Below, piece by piece: positions 3 through 6,513 of a stretch of DNA of 32,000 nucleotides. The position numbers were made by a program, and so were the translations under genes. The DNA lies in assembly GCA_000830275.1 (NCBI GenBank), contig CP010424.1:600001-632000 (forward strand). Direction: 5' to 3'. Numbering within the stretch: the first letter of the stretch is position 1; every line of letters begins with the position of its first letter. The notes below the pieces were generated by a model, which saw only the letters and a program-made list of their open reading frames with translations, was not told the DNA's origin and did not search any database. The DNA is from an archaeon GW2011_AR10 (GTDB lineage: Archaea; Iainarchaeota; Iainarchaeia; Iainarchaeales; GW2011-AR10).

Positions 3-407
3 CTGAAAGAACCAGTGAAAGGCAATGTTCTGCTTGTCGGCGATGCAGCTTTTCAGACAAAGAGCACAACTGGCGGAGGCATCCTGACAGGAATCAATGC
101 GGGCAAGGCAGCAGCAAAAGCAATCGATGATTTCTACAAGAGCAAGAAACCTTTAACCAATTACTCCAAGTACTTGAAGCCAATCAACAAAGAGCTGGAG
201 CTGCACTGGAAGCTGAGAAAATATTTCAACGGGCTCAGCAACGAAAAACTGGACAAATTGTTTGTGAAAATGAGGAAAGCGAAGGTAGGGGAATTCCTGA
301 GCGAGCACGGTGACATGGACAAGCCAAGCAGGTTCATAGGCAAAGTTCTCACAAGGCCAAGCATGTGGAGAATGTTCCCCGAATTCGTAAGCTTTATGGT
401 GAAATAA
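3..407 (+). CDS. Geranylgeranyl reductase family flavoprotein (digeranylgeranylglycerophospholipid reductase-like), C-terminal part; 5' end lies outside the window
   Basis: The reading frame is open to the window edge. LLVGDAAFQTKSTTGGGI matches the GDAA-x(5-6)-tGGGI FAD-contact motif of GGR/FixC-type reductases. Stop at 405-407. Confidence 0.7.
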   Translation: MKEPVKGNVLLVGDAAFQTKSTTGGGILTGINAGKAAAKAIDDFYKSKKPLTNYSKYLKPINKELELHWKLRKYFNGLSNEKLDKLFVKMRKAKVGEFLSEHGDMDKPSRFIGKVLTRPSMWRMFPEFVSFMVK

Positions 408-760: not shown

Positions 761-1051
761 TTATTCTTCAACTTCAAGGGTTCCATTCCTTCCGGCGCTA
801 ACCTGAATTTGGCCCTGCCACTCACTGCACCAGCCGTTCGTGATTTTCACTTTTGAGCCTTCCTTCACTTTGTCAATTTCATCGTTCCAGAGGCTGAGTT
901 TCACTTCTTTTCCTTTATTGTCCTTTAATACAGCGCTGGCTACCTTGCCTGAGCCCCTTTCATTTGCAAAAGAGCGCGACTCGCTGACTGAAACAATTTC
1001 CCCTGAAAGTTCGTCAAAACCACTTCTCGGCTTCAAGTCCTTCACTAACAA
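761..1051 (-). CDS. Small single-OB-fold nucleic-acid-binding protein (SSB/RPA-like)
   Basis: 96-aa ORF. The beta-rich pattern GKVASAVLKDNKGKEVKLSLWNDEIDKVKEGSKVKITNGW...GQIQVS is typical of short archaeal OB-fold proteins. A gaggtg SD-like motif lies upstream. The start is TTG 1051 or GTG 1045. Confidence 0.55.
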   Translation of the reverse strand: MLVKDLKPRSGFDELSGEIVSVSESRSFANERGSGKVASAVLKDNKGKEVKLSLWNDEIDKVKEGSKVKITNGWCSEWQGQIQVSAGRNGTLEVEE

Positions 1052-1269
1052 TCCAACACCTCAAAAAAGTTCTGTGAAAAAAGTTAACTCCCTTGGTTCT
1101 TTTAAAGGAATAGCATAAATCGGCTTAACAGGATGGTCTCTAAAAAACACCTCCATAGTGTAAAGTGCAACCCGCCATTTCTGGGTTTTCATAACATCAT
1201 GCATGCAAATAAAACTAAAGAAAATAAACAGTTTTCTGTTGAAGGAAAAAAACGCGAATCTAAAAATGA

Positions 1270-1295
1270 AATAGCCCCGCAGAGATTCGAACTCT
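1270..1295 (-). pseudogene. Orphan tRNA 3'-end fragment (duplicate of the tRNA-Gln 3' end; att-like)
   Basis: 25/26 identity to 2412-2437. That segment covers T-arm positions 50-65, the acceptor 3' strand, the discriminator and 2 flanking nt of the intact tRNA-Gln. No complementary 5' acceptor strand (AGCCCCG) lies nearby. In tRNA sense it is followed by T-runs like a tRNA terminator. Confidence 0.8.
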
Positions 1296-1342
1296 CATGG
1301 CAGGTCGTCCCTTTTGACACAGAAAGACTTAAATAAACTTGT

Positions 1343-1358
1343 TATATCAATTGATATA
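1343..1358. promoter_or_regulatory. Perfect 16-bp palindrome tatatcaattgatata between a TATA-like box and the ATG of the wHTH/RelE-like operon (candidate operator)
   Basis: tatatcaa/ttgatata is perfectly self-complementary. A ttaaataaa TATA-like element sits at 1329-1337 and the ATG at 1369. It shares 12/16 positions with the palindrome at 29262-29277. Confidence 0.5.
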
Positions 1359-1368
1359 GTGAATTAAT

Positions 1369-1659
1369 ATGTCTATTGCCAAAACAATTTTTTCGCCTAA
1401 AAATATTCTTAGATACCCAAGATTGGATACGGTCCTCATGGTAGAAGAAGCTATCAGAAAAGCCAAAGATTATCCAACCAAGGCAAAGCTCTGGAAGAGC
1501 CTTCCAAAAAAAATGATGTACCAGACATTCAATACCATAATTGACTATTTGGAGTATTCTGGCAAAATCTTGGTTGAAAAAGACGGTTCAATAATCTGGA
1601 TTTGGGACCCGCAAGGCGTTAGAGAACTTTTGAGCAAAAAGCATTTAGTGGTCCGATGA
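1369..1659 (+). CDS. Small winged-helix-like protein (candidate antitoxin/regulator)
   Basis: 96-aa ORF with a 4-bp ATGA overlap with the downstream RelE-like ORF. The segment YQTFNTIIDYLEYSGKILVEKDGSIIWIW resembles a recognition-helix-plus-wing pattern. Confidence 0.45.
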   Translation: MSIAKTIFSPKNILRYPRLDTVLMVEEAIRKAKDYPTKAKLWKSLPKKMMYQTFNTIIDYLEYSGKILVEKDGSIIWIWDPQGVRELLSKKHLVVR

Positions 1660-2009
1660 AACAAGACAACCGGAAAATCTTTGTAATCTTTGTTGACGAT
1701 AAAACCAAAGAGGCATACGACAAACTCAAAGCAGGAAAATTTGAAGACAAGGAACTATACGAATTCATTAACCGGGCAATGGATGACATGAAGAAAAACC
1801 CGCGCGTCGGAATACACTTGCCAAAACGCTTAATACCAAAAGAATACATCCAAAAATACGGCGTAAACAACCTTTACAAATATGACCTGCCAAACAGCTG
1901 GCGACTCATTTACACAATCAAAGGAAGCGAAGTGGAAATACTTGCAGTAATCCTGGAATGGTTTGACCACAAAAACTACGACAGAAAATTTGGATACAAG
2001 ACGAGCTGA
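1656..2009 (+). CDS. RelE/ParE-superfamily toxin-like protein
   Basis: 117 aa. KNPRVG...LPNSWRLIYTIKGSEVEILAVILEWFDHKNYDRKFGY resembles the nP...l.g..yR.iY.i....v.i..i.hR..aY core of RelE/ParE toxins. It is translationally coupled to the upstream small ORF. Confidence 0.5.
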   Translation: MKQDNRKIFVIFVDDKTKEAYDKLKAGKFEDKELYEFINRAMDDMKKNPRVGIHLPKRLIPKEYIQKYGVNNLYKYDLPNSWRLIYTIKGSEVEILAVILEWFDHKNYDRKFGYKTS

Positions 2010-2124
2010 AAAAATTATTTTACAACAGCTATGAAAGGTTAGCCTCAGCCAAAACCATTGCCTCAAAAAAACGAAAAGATACGTCTCGTACTCCTTTTTA
2101 AATTTTTTTTTGAAGAATTTTTGT

Positions 2125-2313
2125 ATGAATTCTGGCGGACAAATACAACAGTTTCTTTTAATTGGAGTAGTTGGAATTATCGGAGCAATAATTATTTTTG
2201 CCATTGCCCAAGAGGGCGCAAAATTAATTCCAAGTGCAGGAGGGTATTTATGGGGAATTGCCATAGCATTCGCTGTTGCAGTTGGAGTTGCTTTGAAATC
2301 GTTTTTTAAGTAA
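2125..2313 (+). CDS. Small two-TM membrane protein (hypothetical)
   Basis: ATG at 2125, about 25 nt after a tttttaaat TATA-like box, which suggests a leaderless transcript. It has two hydrophobic segments, FLLIGVVGIIGAIIIFAIA and LWGIAIAFAVAVGVAL. The track ORF starts earlier, at TTG 2110. Confidence 0.45.
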   Translation: MNSGGQIQQFLLIGVVGIIGAIIIFAIAQEGAKLIPSAGGYLWGIAIAFAVAVGVALKSFFK

Positions 2314-2413
2314 TTCAAAAAATCACCCCGTCTTTGTCAGAGAAAAAAAGTTACCCTGCAAAAAAAGGTAGTTGCTTAAGATTTCGCATGAGTAAGCGTA
2401 CCAAATCGGACAA

Positions 2414-2486
2414 TAGCCCCACAGAGATTCGAACTCTGGTCTCGAGCTCCAGAGGCTCGCATCCTTGGCCGCTAGACTATGGGGCT
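2414..2486 (-). tRNA. tRNA-Gln (anticodon CUG), 73 nt, no intron, CCA not encoded
   Basis: The reverse complement folds as a cloverleaf. Acceptor AGCCCCA/TGGGGCT. Anticodon stem CGAGC/GCTCG with loop CTCTGGA (U33, anticodon CTG, G37). T-arm CAGAG-TTCGAAT-CTCTG. Discriminator A. Confidence 0.9.
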
Positions 2487-2665: not shown

Positions 2666-3250
2666 CTAAAACTTGTTTTCTGGGGGAGTAACAATTATTT
2701 TTGTGAAAAACTGGGAGATTTCCATTACCATTTCCCTTGTTTTCTGGTCGTCTAATGCAATGAGCACTGCCCGAGCGTTAAGCAGCTCAATTTTTCCCAG
2801 CACAAAATGAATGAATTCCTGGATTCTTCTCGGCCTGTTGTAGATCAGGCTCGTTGTAAGCGAGTCATCGAAAAGGAAATCAAACTTGAAGTTCTTTGAA
2901 AGCTTTACTGTAAGGATTGCTGCGCTAGTGAAAGCAGTTGGGCTTCTAAGATAAAAAACGTTGTTTGCCTGTATTGCGAGATTGTTTTCCCTGCTGATGA
3001 AGTCAACAAAAAAGTGCTTGGACGTGTCAATGCCCATCATCTCAAGCTCCCTCTTAATGACCGTTGAAGGCTTGTTAGAGGAAGAATAAATTCCCTTCAA
3101 CTTGAGGTCAAGGATAAGGTGCTTTATCAAGGCATTCCTTGTAGCAAAAAAATCTCCGGGCTTGACCAGAACAAGGTAGGCGTCACCGTTCTTGAAGTCA
3201 CTGAACTGCTCTAAAAGCTCGCTTTCAAACGTTTTCTGGATTGACTGCAA
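2666..3250 (-). CDS. KaiC/RecA-fold-like protein lacking a recognisable Walker A motif (hypothetical)
   Basis: 194 aa. Its layout resembles single KaiC/RadA-like domains: YLVLVKPGDFF...IYSSS...MMGID...FDFLFDDSLTTSL...AVLIALDD. However, GxxxxGK[ST] is replaced by KPGDFFATR. TTG start. Confidence 0.35.
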   Translation of the reverse strand: MQSIQKTFESELLEQFSDFKNGDAYLVLVKPGDFFATRNALIKHLILDLKLKGIYSSSNKPSTVIKRELEMMGIDTSKHFFVDFISRENNLAIQANNVFYLRSPTAFTSAAILTVKLSKNFKFDFLFDDSLTTSLIYNRPRRIQEFIHFVLGKIELLNARAVLIALDDQKTREMVMEISQFFTKIIVTPPENKF

Positions 3251-3285
3251 AAACCCACCCCCCTAAAAAAATGTGGCAAAAAAAT

Positions 3286-3315
3286 GTTTTATGGTATATA
3301 GTTTTATGGTATATA
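3286..3315. repeat. Perfect tandem duplication 2 x 15 bp (gttttatggtatata), TATA-containing, in a divergent promoter region
   Basis: 3286-3300 equals 3301-3315 exactly. On the minus strand the unit reads tatataccataaaac and lies upstream of the 2666-3250 gene. Confidence 0.85.
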
Positions 3316-3368
3316 ACTTGTTCCAAGAACAGGTTTTAAAAGATTTTGAAAACAATTAAATAGTAGTT

Positions 3369-3426
3369 TAGCATTAGTTGTATAAAAGTGAATTGTTTAG
3401 CATTAGTTCTATAAAGGTGAATTGTA
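3369..3426. repeat. Tandem duplication 2 x 29 bp (tagcattagttgtataaaagtgaattgtt), each unit carrying a TATA-like box; overlaps the 5' end of the lipoprotein ORF
   Basis: Unit 1 (3369-3397) matches unit 2 (3398-3426) at 26/29. Each unit contains a tataaa(a/g)g motif. Confidence 0.85.
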
Positions 3427-4676
3427 TTAAAACAAAGTTTTTGTTCGTTTTTCTCGCGCTGATTGTATTAGTAAGCGGTTGCATGCAGCAGCCTCCAGCA
3501 ACAGGTGATGGAACAACTCCTCCAATAGGAGGAAATGATGATACTGTTGTGCCTCCAACTGATGGTGGAGGAGGCACAGTAGACGAAGCCCCACCTCAAA
3601 TTGAGCCAGAGGGAGAGGAAATTGATGAAGTAGCGCCGGCTGTAGAACCTGAAACCGTGATTTCAGAAACCAATAGAATTGCGAGGTTTGTTGCAAGCAT
3701 AACTGACAATCCGCTGCCAGCATCCACAGACAGAACTGTTTCAGTTTTCAAGGGAAACGGAAACGATGAGAACTTTGTCCCTCCGGGCCAGCAAGAAGAA
3801 GACCAAAACGATTTAGATGACGATGATGAAAATGAAACTGATGGCTCAAGAGGAAATGGCAGCAAAAAGCCTGAAAGGGTTGACTTGAACAAAATGACTG
3901 CATTGAACATAACCATCGGGGAGATTTCAATTCATTTGAGCAGGAGCTTTGAATCTGTGCCTGATGTCAATGAGACAGAGGACGAAAACGAAGCAGAAGT
4001 TCCTGACCTGAACGAGATGGAAGAGGATGAAAATGAGTTTGAGGAGCCAGACCTGAATGAAACAGAGGACGAAAATGGAGAAGTTCCGGATGTGAACACG
4101 ACAGAAGACGAAAACAATGGCATTGACGACCTCAATGAATCCGAGGAAAATGACGAAAACCAAAACGAGGACGTTAACCTGGGCCTGCAGGAAGACGAGA
4201 ATGCAGTTGGAGAGCAGGACAGCAACGCTTCAACCAAAAAGAAGAACAAATGGATTCTTTTAAGTGAAGAAGAGCAAACCTTTGACTTGCTGCAGCTGAT
4301 TGACACTGAAGCATTGCTTGCTGACAAGGAGATTCCTGCTGGAAAGTACACGCAGATAAGGCTGCAGATTTTGTCAGCCACTGCAGTAATTGATGGCAAC
4401 GAGTTTGATGTGCGGGTGCCACCGAACAAACTGATGCTGCACGGCGTGTTCAATGCAGATGCTAACAGCATTGTTTTCATGAGCCTTGACTTTGATGTTG
4501 GAAAATCAGTGCATGTAACTGGAAACAACCAAATTATTTTGAGGCCGACGATTAGGCTGAAAGTAATTGAAGATACAGAAGTTTCAGTTGAAGACGGCGA
4601 AGTTGAAGCCGAAAGCGGAGAAACAGTGGAAGAATCAGAGCAGGAATTTGACGAAGAGGGCGAAGAAGCCTCTTGA
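3417..4676 (+). CDS. Secreted/lipobox protein with an acidic tandem-repeat linker and a C-terminal DUF4382-like beta domain
   Basis: The ORF is open from 3378, but that segment lies within the duplicated promoter units. The likely start is GTG 3417, giving VNCIKTKFLFVFLALIVLVSGC (signal peptide plus a lipobox-like SGC). The C-terminus IPAGKYTQIRLQILSATAVIDGNEFDVRVPPNKLMLHG...LDFDVGKSV resembles DUF4382. Confidence 0.65.
   Translation: MNCIKTKFLFVFLALIVLVSGCMQQPPATGDGTTPPIGGNDDTVVPPTDGGGGTVDEAPPQIEPEGEEIDEVAPAVEPETVISETNRIARFVASITDNPLPASTDRTVSVFKGNGNDENFVPPGQQEEDQNDLDDDDENETDGSRGNGSKKPERVDLNKMTALNITIGEISIHLSRSFESVPDVNETEDENEAEVPDLNEMEEDENEFEEPDLNETEDENGEVPDVNTTEDENNGIDDLNESEENDENQNEDVNLGLQEDENAVGEQDSNASTKKKNKWILLSEEEQTFDLLQLIDTEALLADKEIPAGKYTQIRLQILSATAVIDGNEFDVRVPPNKLMLHGVFNADANSIVFMSLDFDVGKSVHVTGNNQIILRPTIRLKVIEDTEVSVEDGEVEAESGETVEESEQEFDEEGEEAS
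3958..4200 (+). repeat. Degenerate in-frame tandem repeats encoding about 5 x P-D-[VL]-N-E-T-E-D-E-N acidic units
   Basis: Recurring DNA units ccNgaNNtNaaNgaNacagaggacgaaaaN start near 3960, 4002, 4047, 4085 and 4125. Confidence 0.7.
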
Positions 4677-4683
4677 GATTAAA

Positions 4684-5391
4684 CTATTTCCCGAATTTTC
4701 TGTTCCTTTCATTGAAGTCTGTTATTGCGCTGTCCAAGTCCTGCTTGCTGAATTCAGGCCAGAACTTTGGGCAAAAAAAGAGTTCGGAGTAAGCTGACTG
4801 GTATGTTAGGAAACCACTTAAGCGCTGTGTGCCGGAAGTGCGGATTATCAAATCAGGGTTAGGCATTTCTGCATACAAGAATTTGTTGAAAGAGCTTTCG
4901 TTCAATTCACTCAATGAAACCGAATTGTTTTTGTATGATTCCGCGAATTTTTTTGCTGCATCAACTATTTCCGCTTGGCCATTGTAGCCTAATGCGAGGT
5001 AAATCGTTTTTTTGTTGTTGTCTTCAGTGAATTCCTCCACTTCCCTCATTTTTTGCTGGATTCTTTTTGGGAAAGCGGCTGTGCGACCAATGAACTTCAA
5101 GCTTATTTTTTCGGTTTCAATTATGCGCCTATCCATTGCCTTATCCAACTCTTTTTCAAACAGCTTGAAAAGAACTGCCAATTCGGCTTTGCTCCTGGCA
5201 AGGTTTTCAAGGGAAAGAGTGTAGAATGCCCCTGCCCTGATTTTTGGGTAATCGACAAGCCAGTTCAAAACGTCCCATGCCTTCTCAGTGCCAAGTTGGT
5301 ATGATTTAGCCAGCTCGATGCCTGAACGGAACGCATACCTTCTGTTCCCATCAGGAATGAAAGCAATAGAAGTCAACTCCATGAGGCCCAC
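4684..5391 (-). CDS. uppS: cis-Prenyltransferase (undecaprenyl/di-trans,poly-cis-polyprenyl diphosphate synthase)
   Basis: IPDGNRRYA and IRTSGTQRLSGFLTYQSAYSELFF...WPEF match the two hallmark UPPS motifs. Length is about 235 aa. The start is GTG 5391 or ATG 5382. Confidence 0.9.
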   Translation of the reverse strand: MGLMELTSIAFIPDGNRRYAFRSGIELAKSYQLGTEKAWDVLNWLVDYPKIRAGAFYTLSLENLARSKAELAVLFKLFEKELDKAMDRRIIETEKISLKFIGRTAAFPKRIQQKMREVEEFTEDNNKKTIYLALGYNGQAEIVDAAKKFAESYKNNSVSLSELNESSFNKFLYAEMPNPDLIIRTSGTQRLSGFLTYQSAYSELFFCPKFWPEFSKQDLDSAITDFNERNRKFGK

Positions 5392-5513: not shown

Positions 5514-5756
5514 ATGACGGCAAAGGTTTCAAAAAAATGGAACGTGAAATCAATTTCGAAGGAAAAGCACGAGCGAGTGATGAGAATACTTGACGAGCTC
5601 TCTGACAAGATGCACGAAATTGACGATATTAGGGTTGGCATCAAGAGGGAGGAAGCAAGGAAAATAAGCCCAGCGCAAACAAAAGCAATGCTGGAGGAAA
5701 TAAAGGTGCCGTCACTGGAAGTAATCAAAGAACAATCAAGCAAGAAAGAAAAATGA
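5514..5756 (+). CDS. Hypothetical charged/coiled-coil protein
   Basis: 80-aa ORF with an ATG start and a 4-bp ATGA overlap with the downstream DUF192 gene. Confidence 0.4.
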   Translation: MTAKVSKKWNVKSISKEKHERVMRILDELSDKMHEIDDIRVGIKREEARKISPAQTKAMLEEIKVPSLEVIKEQSSKKEK

Positions 5757-6153: not shown

Positions 6154-6513
6154 TTAGAACAGTATCCAGTTAGCTGCTTCTGAAAAGAATGCTCCAACAG
6201 TGTACACCGCAGATATTCTGACTATGATTGAGACAAAAAGGAAGAAAGCCACCTTGTCGTAAGGAAGATTGTAAAGGTAGCGGATCCAGAAAAAGTATGC
6301 AACCAGCACAAGAACCCAAGAGAACAGGAATTCTTCCGCAAACAAATAATTGCGCAGAAAAATGAATGAAAGCGTTCCAACAACAAACAGGAAAGCGTTC
6401 AGCAGAGTTGCTCTCTTCAAGGAAAGTGCACGCGACACTGTGTAAAAAAGCGCGGTTCCGAAAGCAATGTTCACAGCAATTGGAACAAGGTAATAGTTTG
6501 CCATCAAAAGCAA
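6154..6513 (-). CDS. Hypothetical integral membrane protein (about 4 TM)
   Basis: 119-aa hydrophobic ORF with an ATG start, convergent with the DUF192 gene. Confidence 0.5.
   Translation of the reverse strand: MLLMANYYLVPIAVNIAFGTALFYTVSRALSLKRATLLNAFLFVVGTLSFIFLRNYLFAEEFLFSWVLVLVAYFFWIRYLYNLPYDKVAFFLFVSIIVRISAVYTVGAFFSEAANWILF

Follow-up and report, generated by a model that had tools for sequence, protein, structure and literature searches.

A genomic island of Pyrococcus yayanosii, PYG1, lies in a tRNA-Gln(UUG) gene with direct repeats of 44 bp (PMC9897764). The block of identity that runs from the T-arm to the 3' end of a tRNA gene is a classical sublocation for tRNA-targeting integrases (10.1101/2020.11.02.365908; PMC1762012), and partial tRNA genes at island ends, tandem accretion and integrase-less derivatives have been documented (PMC9897764; PMC5704250; 10.1101/2020.12.28.424599). 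Here we describe a small islet beside a tRNA-Gln(CUG) gene of the archaeon GW2011_AR10. It lies in a stretch of 32,000 nucleotides (nt) of contig CP010424.1, positions 600,001 to 632,000, which is referred to below as the window and numbered from its first letter. Positions 1296-2411 are probably an integration-derived element, or the remnant of one, in this tRNA gene. An earlier note on this DNA had proposed an integrated element or its decayed remnant at these positions, and the proposal is supported by the flanking repeats, the base composition, the arms at both ends and the recurrence of the unit elsewhere.

A repeat search of the 32-kb window found a 26-nt direct repeat, with positions 1270-1295 and 2412-2437 identical at 25 of 26 positions (96%). 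When up to three mismatches were allowed, the 25-nt core of the repeat occurred exactly twice in the window, against 0.00 occurrences expected from 100 shuffles. ARAGORN called a single tRNA gene, a tRNA-Gln(CUG) on the minus strand at 2413-2487, and the Rfam tRNA model scored 60.7 bits at 2414-2486. This gene also occupies the conserved position relative to its neighbors that is described below. The second repeat copy consists of the final 24 nt of the tRNA gene and 2 trailing nt, and represents the putative proximal attachment (att) copy. The first copy, likewise on the minus strand, holds a T-stem, a T-loop, a 3' acceptor strand, a discriminator and 2 nt, and would be a displaced partial tRNA-Gln 3' end serving as the distal att copy. 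The mismatch, G at 1279 versus A at 2421, is located at tRNA position 66, the partner of position 7. The intact tRNA-Gln(CUG) has an A7-U66 pair, which also occurs in an unrelated archaeon (L056; L-numbers denote homologous contigs or loci recovered by sequence searches). Several relatives have intact tRNA-Gln genes whose 3' ends match the 24 nt at 1272-1295 without a difference (100% identity).

No tRNA signal was detected at 1270-1345 by ARAGORN or by Rfam in gathering and permissive E-value modes, and an AGCCCCG-type 5' tRNA half is found nowhere within the 32-kb window. A second or split tRNA at 1270-1345 was ruled out on these grounds. Directly 3' of the first copy, in the tRNA sense, stands TTTCATTTTTAGATTCGCGTTTTTTT, which resembles the T-run trailers that follow the intact tRNA-Gln genes of relatives. 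The earlier note had described a same-orientation repeat matching at 25 of 26 positions, a second copy that is the genuine 3' end of tRNA-Gln(CUG), and a first copy that lacks a 5' acceptor partner and is followed by T-runs like those of a native tRNA terminator. Each part of this description was borne out, and the check for a second tRNA was negative with ARAGORN and Rfam. Only short open reading frames (ORFs) overlap the two att copies, with 67 and 53 amino acids (aa), and these are chance ORFs. Integration of the SSV type, with Int(N) and Int(C) halves, was rejected on account of these chance ORFs and because there is no room for Int(C).

The tRNA-derived segments are embedded in an arrangement that recurs in other genomes and has as its signature a core, TAGCCCCNNAGAGATTCGAACTCT, and two arms, CCAAATCGGACAA and TTGTCCGATTTGG. 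In the right arm of the islet, at 2385-2413, TTGTCCGATTTGGTACGCTTAC comes directly after the tRNA in the tRNA sense. At the intact tRNA the junction reads GTACCAAATCGGACAA|TAGCCCC in window orientation and GGGGCTA|TTGTCCGATTTGGTAC in the tRNA sense. The right-arm motif directly follows the core in L027, L028, L055, L073 and core B of L047 as well. BLAST homology reached 22-25 nt past the tRNA-derived core at 88-91% identity, with window positions 2390-2440, 2399-2442 and 2392-2440 matching L073, L027 and L047 core B, respectively. The left arm, at 1296-1325, contains TCGTCCCTTTTGAC at 1305-1318, a degenerate copy of TTGTCCGATTTGG. It could be aligned with L049/L023 and with cores A, B and C of L047, and it is an inverted repeat of the right-arm motif. 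The inverted repeat TTGTCCGATTTGG is present in L049 and at cores B and C of L047, where a gap of about 9 nt separates it from the opposite end of the core. Taken over all loci, CCAAATCGGACAA on one side of the core and the inverted TTGTCCGATTTGG on the other are found in the window, L027, L028, L047, L049, L055, L073 and L088.

By these alignments the family site is built of an arm, a tRNA-derived core and an inverted arm. The islet in the window carries one half of such a site at each end, as expected after integration. At position 49, before AGAG, the fragment shares a G with the element copies, and its bases at positions 65-66 (G, C) match the tRNA-Gln 3' ends of several relatives. Such a mosaic fits a recombinant junction, although a single mismatch cannot fix the crossover point and the A7-U66 pair of the intact tRNA recurs in the unrelated L056.

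The islet also stands out in its composition. The GC content of 1296-2411 was 37.3%, versus 42.8 ± 2.1% for segments of 1116 nt across the 32 kb. Segments of this length that were equally GC-poor made up 1.3% of the total, and each of them overlapped either the islet region or a single further spot; the islet is the window's most GC-poor 1.1 kb. Its 3-mer distance of 0.296 was above that of every other segment (mean 0.158, standard deviation 0.042). The left flank at 408-1269 is host-like with 43.3% GC, and the compositional break therefore coincides with the repeat-bounded interval. The earlier note had counted a lack of any signature of foreign origin, combined with identical content and no empty site in all relatives, against integration; the signature is present.

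In the clade of GW2011_AR10 a gene for geranylgeranyl reductase (GGR) converges on the tRNA-Gln(CUG) gene, which is followed by a gene for undecaprenyl diphosphate (UPP) synthase (UPPS) in the same orientation as the tRNA. This order is conserved, and in the window 2005 nt separate the GGR stop codon from the tRNA. A core scan with one genome per species yielded 49 loci, mostly Iainarchaeal tRNA-Gln genes. In one of them (L057) the GGR stop codon TAG forms the first three bases of the tRNA 3' end, and in another (L062) the gap is 3 nt. Judged by this gene order, direct abutment of GGR and tRNA-Gln would be the empty state of the locus. Both genomes are distant, with 57% aa identity over the C-terminal part of GGR. 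In L057 only 49 nt separate the tRNA-Gln and UPPS genes, so variability extends to the upstream side of the tRNA. ARAGORN run without its intron search missed tRNA-Gln genes that bear introns. Long introns were seen in many Iainarchaeal tRNA-Gln genes (L026, L028-L031, L034, L039, L050, L055, L059, L061 and L070); they range from about 40 nt to over 100 nt, and internal repeats occur in some of them.

The closest relative found (L040) has 67% aa identity in GGR and UPPS. Its tRNA is followed by a 107-nt insert, a 24-nt partial copy and the trailer TTTTCATTTTTGA, comparable to TTTCATTTTTAG in the window. Then come a membrane ORF, a DUF2283/DUF4258 pair and an old remnant of an intron-containing tRNA-Gln that abuts the GGR stop codon. 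This layout points to serial insertions at one tRNA, and the pattern can be understood as a product of serial integration that matches published accretion and partial tRNA genes (PMC5704250; 10.1101/2020.12.28.424599; PMC9897764). The remnant in L040 (3395-3474) comprises the 3' part of the intron, the 3' strand of the anticodon stem and the 5' half of the T-arm, and its position is that of the intact tRNA-Gln in L057 and L062. Short tandem partial copies of tRNA-Gln are present in L033 and L035.

The nearest relatives of the source organism are metagenome-assembled genomes (MAGs) of 'Candidatus Iainarchaeum' (Diapherotrites) from groundwater. From Rifle and other groundwater assemblies 20 near-identical contigs were recovered, and all 18 that span the locus contain the islet. 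The other two (L019 and L020) stop at about 1270, the site of an insertion resembling a miniature inverted-repeat transposable element (MITE). Islet-free variants were ruled out as an explanation for these contig ends, since the breaks are due to the polymorphic MITE. This insertion of 117 nt, present in most strains, directly adjoins the tRNA fragment at 1269/1270 and is accompanied by a 5-bp duplication (AATGA). It is carried by L001 (9488-9609), L002-L007 and L010-L017 and partially by L019; the window, L008, L009 and L018 are without it. Modules of its sequence are also found at 470-500, 610-660 and 728-745 of the window.

A unit closely related to the islet was found away from tRNA-Gln. 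Window positions 1272-2014 are 92% identical to positions 1758-2500 of L023/L049, from a Ca. Iainarchaeum MAG (JACQJF). Homology with L049 has the tRNA fragment as its exact starting point and stops 5 nt past the stop codon of the toxin gene described below. The unit is inserted between unrelated genes in a non-syntenic PdxT/PdxS/Nad context, on a contig without a tRNA. In L101 the antitoxin is 87% identical, and a decayed fragment (19 of 24 positions) with a T-run trailer precedes the promoter by the same distance. A more complex case is the array in L047, which is from the same MAG as L049. It starts with a fragment (frag0), a 115-nt mini-element, core A, a ParE-like toxin-antitoxin (TA) pair and core B, and continues with a PemK/MazF TA pair, a remnant of the 3' end of the first toxin gene and a decayed core C. 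The array (3031-5195), with four tRNA-Gln-like cores and no intact tRNA, lies between a HycI-like gene and a chromosomal Orc1/Cdc6 gene. Synteny between L047 and L095 resumes about 40 nt past core C. Relative to L095, the array has a synteny breakpoint at its right edge. The adjacent Orc1/Cdc6 gene was ruled out as a plasmid replication gene, as it is the conserved chromosomal orthologue and synteny with L095 resumes shortly past core C.

More distant TA homologues occur in many unrelated contexts without the tRNA fragment (L021, L022, L024, L025, L092 and L096-L100), which indicates that the TA family uses several vehicles. Homologues near tRNA-Gln(UUG) in L069 and L043 were uninformative, as a second att copy was not found there. 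The TA pair of L092 is flanked by direct repeats of about 200 nt (about 1800-2075 and 3110-3330). Short repeats with GATGATGA and CTGA motifs, which are C/D-box-like, flank the TA genes of L022 at about 5565-5595 and 6430-6460. In the Rifle assemblies a conserved 240-nt block precedes the TA genes in at least three contexts (L096-L100).

Homologous mini-elements of 107-115 nt, with inverted ends and without cargo, were seen in L040 (2370-2476), L028 (3074-3160), L055 (3431-3543) and L047 (3055-3169). They sit between the 3' end of tRNA-Gln, or a core, and a partial repeat of 21-24 nt. Three MAGs contain them: two are at different tRNA-Gln genes of one MAG, and the others are in two further MAGs. 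These mini-elements support mobilization in trans. Over its first approximately 70 nt the mini-element is about 85% identical to a 76-nt intron of tRNA-Gly(CCC) in L095 (11036-11111), in the orientation opposite to the tRNA. The resemblance hints that one small mobile sequence may become either a tRNA intron or an insert at a tRNA 3' end.

The cargo of the islet consists of three small ORFs on the plus strand. A 96-aa winged helix-turn-helix (wHTH) antitoxin candidate (1369-1659) is followed by a 117-aa toxin candidate of the RelE/YoeB/ParE superfamily (1656-2009), and the antitoxin stop codon overlaps the toxin start codon (ATGA) to give a 4-nt gene overlap. The third ORF (2110-2313) encodes a membrane peptide with two hydrophobic helices, of 67 aa from a TTG start or of 62 aa from an ATG at 2125. 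It has two hydrophobic spans and a weak match to DUF4134 (1e-3). The 62-aa version was called in all strain contigs, and the peptide is missing from the L049 unit, whose homology stops at 2014.

A sequence search of the PDB with the two TA proteins returned nothing significant, so fold comparison was needed. The 117-aa protein matched the Pfam families YoeB_toxin (8e-4) and ParE_toxin (1e-3), both below the cut-off, and had 403 homologues, several of which carry the source names RelE/ParE or YoeB. Its AlphaFold model, based on 38 homologues, had a predicted local distance difference test score (pLDDT) of 92.8. The best PDB matches of this model were RelE (2kc8) and YoeB/ParE (6n90), both with a probability of 1.00, and HigB2 (5ja9_D) with 0.99. 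The protein is thus predicted to have the RelE/YoeB/ParE/HigB fold. The 96-aa protein, which is identical to QT03_C0001G0677 of archaeon GW2011_AR10, matched no Pfam family. It had more than 1200 homologues, and those with names were mostly from Diapherotrites and Micrarchaeota. Its model (pLDDT 75) showed a topology of three helices followed by a beta-hairpin, and the top PDB matches were DNA-binding domains of the IclR, MarR, SlyA, MecI, Fur and DtxR proteins. The modeled fold of the antitoxin candidate is a winged helix-turn-helix.

The promoter region of the TA genes, on the plus strand at 1329-1358, contains a TATA-like element, TTAAATAAAC (1329-1338), and a perfect 16-nt palindrome, TATATCAATTGATATA (1343-1358), upstream of the antitoxin ATG. 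Both are kept in the window, L021, L022 and L023, and the region is also present in L024, L025 and L096-L101, in unrelated contexts. The palindrome is the predicted operator, and presumably the two sequences act as promoter and operator. The gene layout and the conserved palindrome suggest that the islet operon is an autoregulated type II TA system. None of the three small ORFs is a recombinase, and no integrase Pfam family was found on the called genes from -8 to +12 kb. The models, fold matches and ORF analysis agree with the cargo that the earlier note had proposed, namely a wHTH protein, a RelE/ParE-like toxin and a peptide with two transmembrane segments, and its statement that the islet lacks an integrase held for the flanking Pfam lists as well.

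Because no recombinase is present, the islet would be a relic or a non-autonomous cassette. We propose that an element entered the 3' part of tRNA-Gln(CUG) by site-specific recombination. Its attachment site would have been a copy of the T-arm and 3' acceptor segment that it carried itself. Recombination would then have rebuilt an intact tRNA, now followed by the right arm of the element, and displaced the 24-26-nt partial tRNA copy with its original T-run trailer to the far end. The integration module may subsequently have been lost, or the element may never have had one and may have moved by means of an integrase encoded elsewhere. We infer that a tyrosine-type integrase acted, with a crossover within or 3' of the T-arm. 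This sublocation, from T-arm to 3' end, is a classical tyrosine integrase target because of its stem-loop symmetry (10.1101/2020.11.02.365908; PMC1762012), as reportedly also described by Williams (2002). The TA pair may stabilize the islet. Both att copies and both arms are retained and no recombinase is present, as in a cis-mobilizable element (CIME). The islet is accordingly CIME-like, either as a decayed relic or as a non-autonomous mini-element mobilized in trans.

Several results weigh against integration at this tRNA. The missing integrase, both in the islet and in the flanking Pfam lists, is one of them; among the 49 loci none of the ORFs adjoining tRNA-Gln looked like a recombinase, as judged by eye only. 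An episomal or viral attP was not found in two viral scans and one metagenome scan. In IMG/VR the core pattern matched only tRNA-Leu, tRNA-Glu and similar genes in tRNA clusters of viral contigs, and the core-plus-arm pattern gave 0 matches in the viral scan. The metagenome scan with core and arm gave nine matches, of which eight had no core-like sequence and only L088 was related. The left-arm motif in the window is degenerate (11 of 16 positions). Neither the L049 unit nor the L047 array adjoins an intact tRNA, so secondary sites or extra rearrangements are needed. The earlier note had suggested looking for an empty site. The abutting GGR and tRNA-Gln genes of the distant L057 and L062 are in line with one, but the flank differs: both lack the single-stranded DNA-binding protein (SSB)-like gene, which in the window lies, together with a small ORF, between GGR and the fragment. 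L057 and L062 therefore do not provide a precise empty site for the islet. With all 18 spanning contigs occupied, there is also no empty site within the species and no sign of ongoing excision.

The absence of an integrase nearby, by Pfam from -8 to +12 kb and by eye in the 49 loci, can equally be read in favor of target-specific transposons or MITE-like elements. The arms would then be terminal inverted repeats, the repeat of about 21-26 nt a target duplication in the T-loop region of tRNA-Gln, and the TA pair a passenger. Inverted-repeat arms do flank the core, the mini-elements of 107-115 nt at tRNA-Gln in L040, L028, L055 and L047 have inverted ends, and the match of about 85% to the L095 tRNA-Gly(CCC) intron suggests landing in tRNA loops. 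We nevertheless regard this explanation as unlikely. Known DDE transposases and casposases generate target-site duplications of 2-15 nt, a range that is exceeded by 21-26 nt, and no transposase was seen either. Differences between the two copies, at position 66 and at the base preceding AGAG, fit two pre-existing att copies better than a fresh duplication, although they could also stem from later mutation. Furthermore, the element-side copy travels with the TA unit to the tRNA-less site of L049, as an attP would. A casposon or DDE transposon proper was rejected: inverted arms exist, but the duplication is 24-26 nt and there is no transposase or Cas1 gene. A different proposal, that the units form a previously undescribed family of recombinase-less, inverted-arm elements of 0.1-1.1 kb at the T-arm/3' end of Iainarchaeia tRNA-Gln, with TA-cassette arrays and a relation to tRNA introns, is tentative and rather doubtful. 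If true, tRNA-targeting mobile elements and archaeal tRNA introns would belong to one mobile sequence pool, possibly with an unrecognized enzyme.

The fragment might also be what a deletion left of a second tRNA-Gln gene or a local duplication, with the TA pair having landed, or always been, between the copies without any site-specific integration. Partial tRNA-Gln remnants are indeed present in the clade (L040, L033 and L035), and the TA family moves by fragment-free vehicles (L021, L022, L024, L025, L092 and L096-L100). What makes this origin improbable is that the homology with L049 starts exactly at the fragment and that the fragment accompanies the TA lineage in L049, L047 and L101. The end of the repeat falls precisely on the T-arm boundary, as is typical of att sites, the right arm beside the intact tRNA is common to cores in other genomes, and the compositional break coincides with the repeat-bounded interval. 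It is still harder to see the fragment as a functional RNA, whether as the 3' half of a tRNA-Gln that is split or trans-spliced or as a tRNA-like element with a processing or regulatory role linked to the TA operon, and we consider this highly improbable. The fragment begins at position 49/50, where no split site is known; an AGCCCCG-type 5' half is absent from the 32 kb, Rfam gave no signal at the fragment, and an intact tRNA-Gln(CUG) lies 1.1 kb away. At least four cores occur in one MAG and some are decaying (L047 core C; also L101), which is unexpected for an essential half-gene, and relative to the TA promoter the fragment is upstream and in antisense orientation. The idea draws on the tRNA genes of DPANN and other archaea, among which split and intron-rich ones are known, on the long introns of many relatives' tRNA-Gln genes, and on the long hairpin that the arm-core-arm junctions could form.

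The genes around the islet were also annotated. The C-terminal part of GGR (15-407, plus strand) is followed by a repeat-rich spacer (420-750), an archaeal SSB-like OB-fold gene (761-1051, minus strand) and a 47-aa ORF (1061-1204, minus strand). The interval 761-1204, with its single-OB-fold gene and small ORF, has a host-like GC content and lies between GGR and the tRNA fragment. None of the 49 loci from relatives showed homologues of its genes near tRNA-Gln, and the two genes may be an older, ameliorated insert. On the other side, a 194-aa ORF that matches no family (2666-3250, minus strand) and the gene of a DUF4382 protein, which has a long acidic repeat region (3378-4676, plus strand), lie between tRNA-Gln and UPPS (4684-5391, minus strand). 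Two perfect tandem 15-nt repeats, GTTTTATGGTATATA, at 3286-3315 and two 29-nt repeats with 93% identity at 3366-3423 are intergenic and upstream of the DUF4382 gene. A direct repeat of 89 nt (88% identity) is present at 501-589 and 2535-2623, on either side of the locus. It forms two hairpins, the loop of the first being flipped (TTT versus AAA), and has only two copies in about 40 kb; in the strain of L005/L015 the second copy has lost 54 nt internally. The repeat was absent from the loci of other species and had no match in Rfam. As tRNA-Gln is ancestral at this location and other species' loci have no copies, there is no support for these repeats as the ends of a composite element.

The mobile elements of DPANN archaea are poorly charted, and the islet indicates that the reduced 1.24-Mb genome of GW2011_AR10 still gains DNA via the tRNA-att route. 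The tRNA-Gln gene beside GGR is a recurrent landing pad for TA cassettes in the clade, and the partial tRNA deserves annotation as an att remnant. The core-plus-arms signature can be used to seek the missing integrase and autonomous relatives. The link between mini-elements and a tRNA intron, if true, bears on the origin of archaeal tRNA introns.

Among the described systems, archaeal tRNA islands and proviruses such as PYG1 share with the islet the tRNA-Gln target, a direct repeat of the tRNA 3' part, intact and partial tRNA at the ends and a foreign composition. They measure 9-23 kb and have repeats of about 44 nt, whereas the islet is 1.1 kb long, has a 26-nt repeat, lacks integrase and replication genes and resides in a DPANN host. 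The CIMEs and the accretion of ICEs (integrative and conjugative elements) and IMEs (integrative and mobilizable elements) in streptococci resemble it in that both att copies are kept and integration genes are absent (PMC5704250). They also share att-separated tandem arrays, as in L047 and L040 here, and TA modules as cargo. CIMEs are bacterial and derived from conjugative elements, and their mobilization by an ICE has been shown experimentally (PMC5704250); for the islet, neither a cognate integrase nor an autonomous relative turned up in the loci covered, and mobilization would be by analogy. The tycheposons of Prochlorococcus likewise target tRNA genes, push older elements and partial tRNAs inward and leave scattered remnants (10.1101/2020.12.28.424599). 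They are several kb long and carry tyrosine recombinases and replication modules, whereas the elements described here are 0.1-1.1 kb in size and without such genes. With type II TA systems (RelBE, YefM-YoeB, ParDE and HigBA) the islet shares overlapping small genes, the antitoxin in first place and a toxin with a RelE/YoeB/ParE-like fold, and, by prediction, a DNA-binding antitoxin and a palindromic operator at the promoter. Unlike RelB, YefM, ParD and Phd, its antitoxin belongs to a DPANN-wide wHTH family without a Pfam model, and its toxin remains below the Pfam gathering scores. The islet thus is a known kind of feature, encountered here in a DPANN archaeon and within a small family of core-plus-arms elements.

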